The position numbers were made by a program, and so were the translations under genes. 64,000 nt of DNA, taken from NCBI GenBank assembly GCA_001781125.1, contig MFKT01000001.1, positions 3,630 through 67,629 on the forward strand. Reading direction: 5' to 3'. The notes under the pieces were generated by a model. The model had not been told where the DNA came from. It ran no database searches and was given only the letters and a program-made list of their open reading frames with translations. Below are positions 11,620 to 13,372 of the stretch, in pieces; within the stretch, counting starts at the first letter, position 1; each line of letters starts with the position of its first letter. Source of the DNA: Candidatus Kaiserbacteria bacterium RIFCSPHIGHO2_01_FULL_53_29 (GTDB lineage Bacteria > Patescibacteriota > Minisyncoccia > Phycocordibacterales > UBA2100).

Positions 11620-11668
11620 GACTTGTATTCACTAACACCTAGAACCTAGTCCCTAGCACCTAGTTCAT

Positions 11669-12016
11669 ATGACACGCTCGCTCAAAAAAGGTCCCTACGT
11701 GGACGCGAAGTTGATGAAGAAAGTATCTCTGCGTAAAGCCACGCAGGGGTCTATTAAGACGTGGGCGCGCAGCTCGCAGATCGCACCGGAATTCGTCGGC
11801 TACACGTTTGCGGTGCACAACGGCAAAAGCTTCGAAGAGGTATATGTCTCCGAAGACATGGTCGGGCACCGGTTGGGTGAATTCTCACCGACGACCAAAT
11901 TCATCAAGCACGGCGGAAAGATGCAGAAAGAGACCGAGATGGCGGCCAAGGCCGCGGAAATCGCAGCGGCAACAGCAGCCAAGGCGACTACCACGACGAC
12001 CGCCGCAAAGAAATAA
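11669..12016 (+). CDS. rpsS: 30S ribosomal protein S19 (with an Ala/Thr/Lys-rich C-terminal extension)
   Basis: [19 protein letters not shown]...[37 protein letters not shown] matches S19. Confidence 0.9.
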
Positions 12017-12159
12017 TCTATGCCCGGCAGGACAATTTCGAATTGCTCACTATGAAAACTCACGAAACTACATCAAACGGAATAACCAAAGTGGTTTTAC
12101 TTACGGCCGTTGTTGAAACCTCGCAGGGAATTATTCGAAATTGTACTAGCCGGGTATGA
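12017..12159 (+). repeat. Copy B of the roughly 140-bp cassette between rpsS and rplV
   Basis: The same TIRs and TATG flanks as copy A. uORFs MPGRTISNCSL and MKTHETTSNGITKVVLLTAVVETSQGIIRNCTSRV have ATGA overlaps at both junctions. The middle is diverged, but the 108-nt ORF length is kept. Confidence 0.8.
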
Positions 12160-12599
12160 AAGCCACACTTACCAACTATCATCAGTCGCCGCGCAAGGTG
12201 GGGCTTGTTGCGAGTCTCATTCGCGGCAAGAGTGTTGTTGCTGCGCGCGCCGCATTGCTCTACTTGCCCAAAAAATCCTCGCCCGCGATCGGCAAGCTTC
12301 TGGACAGCGCCATTGCCAACGCCAACCGCGTAGGAGCGACGGCAGAAGATCTTTTTGTAAAGACGATTACGGTCAACAAGGGCGCCATCATGCGCCGGGC
12401 CAGGCCCTTTGCCCGTGGCCGCTCCGGCTCTATTAGGAAGACGATGAGCATTGTGTTCCTCGAACTCGGCCCTATCTCCGCCAAGGCTTCGAAGGGTAAG
12501 CACGCACCGAAAGCAGCGAATGTCAAAACTTCCAAAAAGTCCAACCGCAAGACAGGAAGTTCGAAGAAATCAAAGAAAGAACTAGTCCCTAGCACCTAG
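12156..12599 (+). CDS. rplV: 50S ribosomal protein L22 (Lys-rich C-terminal tail)
   Basis: MKATLTNYHQSPRKVGLVASLIRGKSVVAARAALLYLPKK...MRRARPFARGRSGSIRK matches L22. Confidence 0.9.
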   Translation: MKATLTNYHQSPRKVGLVASLIRGKSVVAARAALLYLPKKSSPAIGKLLDSAIANANRVGATAEDLFVKTITVNKGAIMRRARPFARGRSGSIRKTMSIVFLELGPISAKASKGKHAPKAANVKTSKKSNRKTGSSKKSKKELVPST

Positions 12600-12617
12600 T
12601 CCCTAGCACCTATTTAT

Positions 12618-13319
12618 ATGACCCACACCGTACATCCATACGCCCACCGCCTCGGCATCATCCGCGACTGGAAATCGCGCTGGTTCTCCAAATCACCGGC
12701 GAAATATCGCGAGAACGTCTGTGTGGATGCCGCCATCCGCCGCTTCCTCAAGAAGCGCTTGCGGGGCAATTACGTTACCTCTGTCGAGATCGAGCGCAAC
12801 GAAAAGGCGATCCGCTGTCTGATCAGGACGTCGCGTCCGGGACTTGTCATCGGTCGTGGCGGGGAAGGCTCGACCAAGCTCACCAAGGAAATCGAGAAGG
12901 TCATCCGCACCGTGCCGCCCGCCAGAGGCGGGTCCTCCTTCGGAGGAAAAGCCTCCCCTCTCTCTGTGCGGCTCGATATCGAAGAGGTTCGCTCGCCGGA
13001 ATCACAATCACCGGTCGTCGCCTACATGGTCGCCGAAGGATTGGAAAAGCGACAGACGTTCCGCCGCGTCCTGAAACAGACGGTGGAGAAAGTGATGGCG
13101 AATCGTGATGTCCAAGGGGTGCGCATCGCCATCGCCGGCCGCCTCGGGGGAGCAGAGATGTCCCGCACCGAAGAGATCAAGCGCGGTCGCGTGCCTCTGC
13201 AGACTCTGCGCGCCGATATCGATTTTGCGCGCGAGACTGCGTATCTCCCGTATGGCGTTATCGGCATCAAAGTCTGGATCTACCGCGGCGACATCTTTGA
13301 TAAAGACGCAAAGAAGTAA
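12618..13319 (+). CDS. rpsC: 30S ribosomal protein S3
   Basis: KH-domain region and ...GVRIAIAGRLGGAEMSRTEEIKRGRVPLQTLRADIDFA... match S3. Confidence 0.9.
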   Translation: MTHTVHPYAHRLGIIRDWKSRWFSKSPAKYRENVCVDAAIRRFLKKRLRGNYVTSVEIERNEKAIRCLIRTSRPGLVIGRGGEGSTKLTKEIEKVIRTVPPARGGSSFGGKASPLSVRLDIEEVRSPESQSPVVAYMVAEGLEKRQTFRRVLKQTVEKVMANRDVQGVRIAIAGRLGGAEMSRTEEIKRGRVPLQTLRADIDFARETAYLPYGVIGIKVWIYRGDIFDKDAKK

Positions 13320-13372
13320 TTGCATTTGAATTTACTATTCCCTAGCACCTATTCCCTAAAACCTAACTCTTT

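Follow-up and report, generated by a model that had tools for sequence, protein, structure and literature searches.

In the ribosomal-protein operon of a Kaiserbacteria-like Parcubacterium, a member of the candidate phyla radiation (CPR), the start codons of rpsS, rpsC, rplP and rplN are each preceded by a short tandem array of heptanucleotides, and arrays of the same kind recur before ribosomal-protein genes of its relatives. The four lie in a stretch of DNA of 64,000 nucleotides (nt), which we refer to as the window. Their conservation and their fixed register with the ATG make a role in translation initiation probable. The explanation that we favor, tentatively and with somewhat less than even confidence, is that selection maintains them as a cis-acting RNA element where translation initiates; the element would be read in 7-nt steps and would have spread between spacers as cassettes after arising by slippage.

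A sequence-only reading of the window had reported a recurrent CTAG-rich 13-mer, TCCCTAGCACCTA, immediately upstream of rpsS, rpsC and rplP. Its positions hold up: exact copies lie at 11650-11662, 12586-12598, 12600-12612 and 13339-13351, and two-mismatch variants at 11629-11641 and 13353-13365, the last a single base from where that reading had placed it (13352). Seven matches with up to two mismatches occur in the window versus 0.56 expected, a number reached in none of 100 shuffles. CTAG recurs every 7 nt (11639/46/53/60 and 12582/89/96/603), so the 13-mer resolves into two alternating heptamers, TCCCTAG and CACCTAG, of a unit NNCCTAG. Tandem Repeats Finder returned period-7 arrays at all three sites and a fourth before rplN, with 3.4-4.4 copies in each; the four arrays end 4-8 nt before the ATG, whereas the 13-mer-type copy nearest each start ends 5-7 nt before it and the first rplP copy 21 nt before. 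A suspected avoidance of CTAG is borne out as well: no tetranucleotide of the window falls further below expectation (observed/expected 0.69), and 9 of the 48 CTAG copies are in arrays.

All four arrays are on the plus strand. The array before rpsS (11629..11663) consists of TCACTAA, CACCTAG, AACCTAG, TCCCTAG and CACCTAG, followed by a linker, TTCAT, and the ATG at 11669, with 6 nt between the last CTA and the ATG. The array before rpsC (12579..12613) reads GAACTAG, TCCCTAG, CACCTAG, TCCCTAG and CACCTAT, then TTAT and the ATG at 12618 (5 nt after the last CTA); it spans the end of rplV plus the spacer, and the rplV stop codon TAG (12597-12599) does lie inside it, as had been noticed. Before rplP (13332..13366), TTACTAT, TCCCTAG, CACCTAT, TCCCTAA and AACCTAA are followed by CTCTTT and the ATG at 13373. 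The rplN array (14274..14304) is built from a unit other than NNCCTAG that has the same CTA core: GCTACAA, GCTACAA, GCTAACG, GCTACAA and a final GCT (4.4 copies), then TTTTCTTT and the ATG at 14313.

To place these arrays in context, we compared the window with 160 related loci retrieved with its S3 protein (best matches 85-88% identical), giving 161 sequences and 1.81 Mb. The loci retrieved are ribosomal-protein operons from CPR bacteria, namely Candidatus Kaiserbacteria and other Parcubacteria/Paceibacteria, which places the source organism in this group, and the window operon has S5 followed directly by L15 with no L30 between them, as expected for CPR. A simple open reading frame (ORF) and codon-usage caller yielded 2,564 genes, arrays were counted from a threshold of at least 3.4 copies of a unit, and the genomes are related and thus non-independent samples. 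By their labels, the array-bearing lineages include Kaiser-, Nomura-, Taylor-, Yonath- and Zambryskibacteria, among others.

At this threshold there are 178 period-7 arrays, in 53 of the 161 sequences, compared with 33 arrays of period 5, 19 of period 8 and 6 of period 10. Most are intergenic (143 of 178). In 96 of the 178, the end of the array falls within -10 to +20 nt of a start on the plus strand, with 5 nt before the start as the modal distance; none precedes a start on the minus strand, which carries only 166 of the 2,564 called genes. Many ribosomal-protein genes bear arrays, with rpsC (18 of 155) and then rplN (11 of 130) as the leading sites. Units differ among genomes and are alike within one (GAAGCTA, AACTACN, CCTAAAA, ATTCCTA, ACGCTAC, AATTTTC, AAATCTT and AATTACG). 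The sequence-only reading's single motif thus gives way to a family: besides NNCCTAG, the window and its relatives also use GCTACAA, GAAGCTA, AACTACN, CCTAAAA and AATTTTC.

CTA stands in register with the start codon. In CTA-containing arrays, the position of CTA peaks at -8/-9, -15/-16, -22/-23 and -29/-30, and also at -2 (CT-ATG). With orthologous duplicates merged, which leaves 43 gene/unit combinations from 22 genomes, the phase of CTA relative to the ATG is distributed as 5, 16, 15, 3, 1, 1 and 2 over the seven positions (p=2e-7), and the commonest arrangements are CTA-N5-ATG (14), CT-ATG (7) and CTA-N6-ATG (6). Relative to the upstream stop codon, the phase is uniform (p=0.995; undeduplicated set of 37 arrays).

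CTA is also the most constant part of the unit. Interior units deviate from the consensus of their own array at 1% for C, 5% for T and 7% for A, compared with about 25% at columns +2 and +3 (Fisher p=3e-7). In the rpsC-rplP spacer, CTA is invariant every 7 nt among the window and the related loci L081 and L082, whereas the 4-nt spacers between successive cores differ. CTA is present in 45 of 93 units versus 18.4 expected from shuffled units. Across orthologous and related arrays the base that follows it is A in 15, C in 11, T in 8 and G in 5; because this base varies, it is CUA, rather than UAG, that is conserved.

Composition and size are constrained as well. Start-proximal arrays contain 9% G and 19% C, with C exceeding G in 66 arrays and G exceeding C in 21 (p=1.4e-6). 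ATG is rare in units (2 versus 8.4 expected, P=0.004), and SD-like 3-mers, resembling the Shine-Dalgarno (SD) sequence, are found in 5 of 93. Period-7 repeats number 237, 79, 92, 24, 4 and 5 at 2, 3, 4, 5, 6 and 7 copies, whereas other periods fall monotonically; the copy number thus favors 4-5 units, or about 30 nt, and array length has a median of 30.5 nt and a maximum of 45 nt. We considered a barrier of stop codons in three frames. Stop codons are enriched (67 of 93 units versus 48 expected), yet many CTA units (CTAC, CTAT) are stop-free, so such a barrier is at most a side effect.

Orthologous arrays of 27-35 nt are nearly identical in genomes that have diverged almost to saturation at synonymous sites. 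The window and L081 agree at 34 of the 35 nt of the rpsC array whereas 4-fold degenerate sites of rpsC are 40% identical, and the array is conserved despite a scrambled C-terminal tail of L22. Three other loci, L084, L007 and L014, share a (GAAGCTA)4 array with 27-28 of 28 nt identical and 4-fold sites 32-38% identical. Recent recombination was rejected as the source of this identity: synonymous identity is raised in the 5' codons of rpsC between the window and L081, but it is raised also versus L082 and L084, which bear different arrays, and in the trio of L084, L007 and L014 the array is shared without raised synonymous identity in the first (5') codons.

Variation within a population is limited. 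Ten assemblies encode an S3 protein identical to that of the window and are 99.5-100% identical to it, and the arrays are identical in nine of the ten. Assembly GCA_001781875.1 carries the same S3, and its contig MFMQ01000020.1 is the same locus. In the tenth assembly, L164, the rpsC array (window 12586-12613) is shorter by a 14-nt double unit, TCCCTAGCACCTAG, and this deletion would remove the in-frame L22 stop codon; either the array did slip, by two units at once, or the assembly is in error. With nine of ten assemblies identical and copy number kept between species, we mostly reject a hypervariable phase-variation locus.

These observations bear on the simplest alternative, that the arrays are neutral by-products of mutation, in which slippage favors 7-nt units that survive where they are harmless, in short co-directional spacers. 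According to summaries of Mrazek 2007 (in PMC4679880 and PMC4692102), heptanucleotides outnumber every other class of long simple repeat in most prokaryotic genomes, and polymerase slippage is the proposed cause. A neutral origin would also sit well with the many close relatives that lack an array at the same spacer, with the 14-nt variant in one assembly of the same population, with the lack of a significant start-side bias within spacers (44 versus 32, p=0.2) and with an operon that tolerates four insertions resembling miniature inverted-repeat transposable elements (MITEs) and two toxin-antitoxin modules. It does not account for orthologous arrays that are 97-100% identical where 4-fold sites are 32-40% identical, for a CTA in register with the ATG and not with the stop codon, for a G-poor bias confined to the sense strand, for a non-monotonic copy optimum at 4-5 units with a cut-off near 45 nt, or for the enrichment of CTA and depletion of ATG relative to shuffled units. 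We therefore regard neutrality as improbable, and the selected RNA element as the better explanation of what is conserved.

How the arrays came to stand before so many genes is a separate matter, and here movement between spacers appears to have a part. Near-identical arrays precede different genes of different genomes in 28 pairs. The window rpsS array, for example, matches the rpmC array of L084 (CACCTAG, AACCTAG, TCCCTAA and CACCTAA, then TCAT-ATG), and GAAAGCTAGAAGCTA arrays with a common 5' flank stand before rpsC in L084, rpsH in L059 and rplD in L128. At rplP, the units are of the CCCTAG type in the window and of the ACTAC type in L081 and L082. Together, the cross-gene matches and the switch of unit at rplP indicate that arrays are exchanged or overwritten between spacers and that units are homogenized within a genome.

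Members of the start-array unit family also land in coding sequence. An in-frame array of four GAAAGCT units (56964..56993, minus strand) lies inside a 752-aa helicase-like ORF read as recG, where it encodes ..SPESSKLKAESS.., and its unit family (CTGAAAGCT) recurs in a hairpin at 47792-47825 and in the start-proximal arrays of L059 and L128. One could suppose that the arrays are mainly self-propagating, as mobile or gene-conversion-spread cassettes that enter the TATG start context and affect expression only secondarily. The cross-gene pairs, the shared flank of the GAAAGCTAGAAGCTA arrays, the within-genome homogenization, the change of rplP unit and the presence of one unit family both inside recG and in a terminator hairpin are what such cassettes would leave behind. 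Solitary arrays, however, have no terminal inverted repeats, target-site duplications or associated transposase, and mobility fails to explain the ATG register, the strand bias or the long-term orthologous conservation. As a sufficient account we consider it rather unlikely; as a mode of spread it is compatible with a selected RNA element, and the two are not exclusive.

A MITE-like element is also present in the window. It is about 135 nt long and occurs at 9897-10030, 12021-12155 and 14698-14833, with the 3' end of a fourth copy at 52837-52864, and each copy ends exactly at a start codon (of rplB, rplV, rplX and a gene at 52866). The ends are identical, CCCGGCAGGACAATTTCGAATTGC ... GGAATTATTCGAAATTGTACTAGCCGGG, forming terminal inverted repeats, and the element folds at -41.5 kcal/mol (z -4.8). 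Because TATG is found on both flanks, it seems to insert into, and duplicate, the TATG start context. No exact copy of its 5' end occurs in the 160 related loci.

Two toxin-antitoxin modules have also entered the ribosomal-protein operon, at 10928-11523 and 15687-16267. The first, mazE-mazF between rplB and rpsS, has its own near-consensus promoter, TTGACA-16-TACAAT (10894-10921); the second pairs a RelB/DinJ antitoxin with a YafQ-like toxin and occupies the minus strand from rplE to rpsN, between the two genes. The MazF toxin is encoded just 5' of the rpsS array, and a link between the two was considered; arrays are also found in relatives without mazEF at that site.

As solitary elements, the arrays have little structure. 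None of the four in the window folds more stably than its shuffles (z -0.39 to +0.32), the rpsS array having a minimum free energy of -5.3 kcal/mol and a z of +0.32, and the rpsC, rplP and rplN arrays z values of -0.39, +0.06 and -0.09. We accordingly rejected solitary arrays as structured RNA or as palindromes of the repetitive extragenic palindromic, bacterial interspersed mosaic element or MITE type. The -40 to +20 regions average -3.5 kcal/mol with an array versus -6.9 kcal/mol for other genes of the same loci (p=3e-12).

A paired form occurs in 23 spacers, where a partly complementary, G-richer array stands 20-30 nt upstream of the first. Such pairs, also seen in L056, L031 and L026, fold as a long hairpin with internal loops every 7 nt (z -2.0 to -7.2). 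In the window, the pair at 47745..47825 (plus strand), 3' of an FtsH-like gene ending at 47743, consists of four TGTCAGC units (47745-47772) and of TCTGAAA, GCTAGCA and CCTGAAA units (47792-47825), followed by TTTTTT. It folds at -29.9 kcal/mol (z -3.83, with 0 of 200 shuffles as good), and the hairpin with its TTTTTT looks like a terminator.

For the four start arrays, identity as a promoter or terminator was rejected, as no consensus site overlaps them. A role at the DNA level, as promoter element, operator or copy-number phase-variation switch, has precedents elsewhere: at the ctxAB promoter of Vibrio, heptad repeats are reported to function in transcription, and a DNA-level effect of heptamer repeats has been proposed for Nostoc recO; the one 14-nt variant in the population could be seen in this light. 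The arrays, though, are internal to a co-directional operon and 3' of the promoter-like site that precedes rpsS, no sigma-70 hexamer pair is matched by them, nine of ten population assemblies are identical with copy number conserved between species, and the sense-strand bias and ATG register point to RNA. We hold a DNA-level role to be the least probable of the explanations discussed here.

The rpsS array is placed 3' of a promoter-like site (11559-11587) and a hairpin (11597-11610). A leader at 11559-11618, conserved in L081, L003, L007, L014 and L002, comprises a TTCCTATACATT box, a CCCGC-N4-GCGGG hairpin and a T-rich run, and its conservation suggests that rpsS starts a transcription unit in this clade. 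The window array sits between the leader hairpin and the ATG.

The start context of these genes is one from which SD sequences are largely missing. SD-like 4-mers occur at -18..-4 in 6% of window genes, and likewise in 6% of 2,524 starts of the clade, versus 11% of random 15-mers, G drops to 6-15% between -12 and -1, and T occupies -1 in 52% of starts in the window and 57% in the clade. GGAGG-like sequence, complementary to the anti-SD CCUCC, is absent at all four array-bearing starts of the window, in agreement with what had been said of rpsS, rpsC and rplP. The further suggestion, that the repeat replaces an SD sequence at these genes in particular, does not stand: because SD-like sequence is depleted upstream of starts across the whole clade, the arrays replace no SD at particular genes and are an optional addition. 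Nor is the 13-mer a genome-wide initiation motif, being confined to three spacers in 64 kb, and with arrays of any unit at only about 4% of genes in these loci, they cannot be a general start signal. What is left of the proposed non-SD signal or protein-binding site is that the repeats are non-random, occupy the ribosome-binding position and have no SD beside them, and a role at the initiation region, as signal or as protein site, fits the conservation, CTA register, strand asymmetry and preferred array size.

No 16S gene was found in the window (Rfam) or in the 160 related loci; the only Rfam matches in the window are one tmRNA and one tRNA, and the arrays match no Rfam family at gathering score. 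Tsurumaki et al. 2022 (PMC9297842) found a CCTCCT anti-SD motif in only 48% of Parcubacteria 16S genes and report that most CPR bS1 proteins have 3-4 S1 domains and that Parcubacteria are often without bS21. In lineages lacking the CCUCC anti-SD, the CUA units could then pair with an altered 16S 3' tail and serve as a substitute SD. Consistent with this, the last CTA falls at -8/-9, the place expected for the 3' end of an SD, the anti-SD is often undetected in Parcubacteria (PMC9297842) and SD-like motifs are depleted upstream of starts. Only 3 nt are common to the units of one genome, however, which is too short for a stable helix; a single pairing needs no tandem array; and the CTA excess at -8 is weak in 1,923 array-free genes (61 versus about 20-65 at neighboring positions). 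The weakness of that excess also led us to reject CTA as a general ribosome-binding motif, and a substitute SD seems to us very unlikely.

Array-free genes show a further CTA peak, at -5, which stems from a separate conserved element ending ACTAAC-ATG. A conserved intergenic element that lies before rplF in the window, at about 17690-17767, ends ..GGGTGTAAGTTGTTTCTAAACTCG(N)CTCGTTAAGAAAAACTAAC-ATG and has no Rfam match; the window copy opens about 50 nt before the ATG with AGGAGGGTGG, which is SD-like. The rplF-type element is also found before rplV (L081, L083), rplX (L083, L003, L086), rpsH (L003, L004) and rpsE (L004). A second conserved stop-to-start module is marked by TAGTTCGAC, of which there are 4 copies versus 0.41 expected, at 13793-13801, 18314-18322 and 19779-19787 on the plus strand and 31850-31858 on the minus strand. 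On the plus strand, the TAG of the motif serves rplP, rplF and rplO as stop codon, ..CTCACTATAAA.. follows, and the next ATG is 26-30 nt past the stop; similar spacers occur in relatives (four times in L011, twice in L090, and in L082 and L001). Finally, L004 and L086 fill their pre-start spacers with a different, lineage-specific repeated module, ..ATTTGTAGTTATTTGTAGATTGGAATATATTCGTAGATTGGAAC.., before at least eight genes (rplD, rplW, rpsQ, rplX, rplE, rplF, rplR and secY).

Taken as an RNA element, the array suggests a specific mechanism. Transcribed within the polycistronic ribosomal-protein mRNA, its 4-5 heptanucleotides, each a CTA core with four variable bases, would fill roughly -35 to -6 before the start codon and supply a G-poor, ATG-poor, unstructured tract of about 30 nt where SD pairing is unused. 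A register of 7 nt with a 3-nt core argues for a single-strand RNA-binding protein rather than base-pairing, and such a partner, either a free factor or part of the ribosome, might read the tract in 7-nt steps; the next AUG would thereby be set 5-6 nt past the last CUA. The consequence for the cistron could be activation or repression. The arrays would probably arise and change size by replication slippage and then be kept by selection, with spread from spacer to spacer as small cassettes. The leading candidate readers are ribosomal protein S1, which is a chain of OB-fold (oligonucleotide/oligosaccharide-binding) domains, or a cold-shock-domain protein with a heptanucleotide footprint. The footprint of the 30S subunit runs from about -35 to +19, and its upstream part is close to the length of an array. 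CspB of B. subtilis is known to bind a heptanucleotide (PMC1904285).

A stricter version of this idea holds that (N4-CUA)4-5 is a sequence-specific initiation or regulatory signal in ATG register, spread by cassettes and read in 7-nt steps by a multi-domain or oligomeric factor that binds single-stranded RNA. We consider it possible although distinctly less likely than the broader explanation; if true, the excess of heptanucleotide repeats long noted in bacteria would for the first time be assigned a function.

Several observations count against a selected RNA element. Only about 4% of genes in these loci have an array and many close relatives have none at the same spacers, and this rarity and absence mean that the arrays are dispensable. 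Arrays mostly fill short spacers, and in single-array spacers the array is closer to the start in 44 cases and to the stop in 32 (p=0.2), so start proximity is partly a consequence of spacer size and is weak evidence alone. Many arrays of AT-rich lineages are without CTA (AATTTTC, AAATCTT, AATTACG), so that there is no one recognition core common to all. Base composition accounts for the low folding energy of array-bearing initiation regions, as their z-scores against shuffles do not differ from those of the other genes. Units with different 4-nt spacers coexist in one genome, which fits whole-array conservation poorly unless several constraints act jointly. Lastly, a scan of about 70 proteins encoded in the window, 64 kb of the genome, identified no member of the S1, cold-shock, HutP, TRAP, Hfq or CsrA families.

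A repressor could use the same sequences in another way. TRAP sites consist of 9-11 (G/U)AG triplets with 2-3-nt spacers, and HutP sites of UAG triplets (3+3) with 4-nt spacers. The arrays could be operators for an oligomeric repressor of this kind, with one subunit per CUA across 4-nt spacers, blocking the ribosome at -35 to -6 and co-regulating the cistrons. Sites of this kind are typified by a conserved triplet and by spacers that are fixed in length but free in sequence; each array has 4-5 units, the same units recur among genes of one operon, the ribosome-binding region is overlapped and the arrays of the window read UAG-N4 four times, the spacing of the HutP type. Against it, orthologous arrays do not keep the G of UAG and have CTAC, CTAA and CTAT as well, no HutP or TRAP family protein is present among the window proteins scanned, other lineages have CTA-less arrays, and conservation extends over the whole array, spacers included, beyond what a reader of triplets would need. 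A TRAP-type site proper was rejected, given a spacer of 4 nt and 4-5 units. We judge such a repressor unlikely, if a little less so than neutrality, and continue to favor an element of the initiation region whose direction of effect may go either way.

The operon that houses the arrays is itself atypical. By Pfam matches, it encodes L2 (10031-10873), S19 (11669-12016), L22 (12156-12599), S3 (12618-13319) and L16 (13373-13795), with L29, S17, L14, L24, L5 and the rest of the ribosomal-protein operon downstream. No gene for S10, EF-Tu or EF-G is present upstream of rplC (region 7537-8073), where there is a 156-aa ORF (7537-8007) without a family match. Guanylate kinase is encoded between secY and adk (in the region 19332-24229), and map is followed by an unassigned 136-aa ORF and a PaaX-like protein instead of infA, rpmJ, rpsM, rpsK, rpsD and rpoA. 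Elsewhere in the window, a tRNA-Ile at 50233-50305 carries the anticodon UAU (tat in the genome), an unusual bacterial way to read AUA, and a long GAC/GAT triplet repeat at 3392-3545 encodes the Asp-rich C-terminal tail of a 111-aa ORF (3215-3550).

We envision that these arrays can be put to use on two broader questions, namely how internal starts are chosen in the polycistronic mRNAs of bacteria without a usable anti-SD, and why heptanucleotide repeats abound in prokaryotes and, in Beggiatoaceae and cyanobacteria, cluster before starts. The CPR arrays offer a compact test case, with about 30 nt, a 3-nt core, a defined spacing to the AUG, a copy optimum and cross-species conservation. A vague repeat phenomenon is thereby turned into a few testable predictions, on core, spacing and copy number and on S1 and cold-shock proteins (Csp) as binders. 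In genome annotation, the arrays could flag true start codons where SD-based prediction fails.

Among known systems, the arrays differ from SD sequences in having no CCUCC complementarity, in being G-poor and tandem and in standing at a minority of genes, although the position is the same, with the last core 5-6 nt upstream of the start. With TRAP and HutP sites they share a triplet repeated at fixed spacing, variable spacers, single-stranded RNA and a possible overlap with the ribosome-binding region; the conserved triplet here is CUA, not UAG, and is repeated 4-5 times rather than 9-11 or 3+3 times. The window arrays do fit UAG-N4 x4, whereas among related arrays the base after CTA varies. 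Period-7 intergenic repeats are described in Calothrix PCC 7601, among others, together with GGGAATC and GGGGA(T/C)T repeats of Xanthomonas and Nostoc (PMC4692102). These resemble ours in that period 7 is over-represented, some occur as inverted pairs able to form stem-loops and related strains differ in their length and sequence, but they are G-rich with quadruplexes, or long (up to tens of copies), and not tied to starts, whereas our arrays are poor in G and span 24-45 nt. For Nostoc, regulatory roles of start-proximal heptamer repeats have been proposed in a preprint, with the mechanism unsettled.

The closest precedent is the TAACTGA heptamer repeat. MacGregor 2015 (PMC4679880) describes 169 sets of 2-6 TAACTGA repeats, mostly forward and ending a few nt before starts, in marine Beggiatoaceae, some cyanobacteria and Bacteroidetes. 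The distribution is patchy and the function unproven; SD sequences are rare in the spacers concerned, several sets lie inside ribosomal-protein operons, and S1, Csp and CsrA were proposed as readers. The likeness is extensive: tandem 7-nt units in one orientation, intergenic and ending a few nt before a start, also in ribosomal-protein operons, with at most one G per unit, usually no SD in the spacer and a patchy phylogenetic distribution. The TAACTGA consensus itself is not found among the period-7 arrays listed here, whose units include YCCCTAG/CACCTAG and GCTACAA; given this different unit sequence, the two share a class and not a sequence family. We found no report of heptamer start arrays in CPR, Parcubacteria or Patescibacteria in the literature, and no report, in the sections of PMC4679880 that were consulted, of conservation at saturated synonymous divergence or of an ATG register for the TAACTGA repeats. 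In the TAACTGA system, again as described there, one unit serves genome-wide, repeats that stop 1 nt short of the start form the largest class and the host anti-SD is canonical, whereas here there are several units with a CTA core, CTA-N5-ATG is the commonest arrangement, copy number peaks at 4-5 and the clade is SD-free. Relative to the TAACTGA class, the new features of the arrays are thus variable units around a CTA core, a demonstrated register with the ATG, a size optimum and conservation between species of an SD-free clade.

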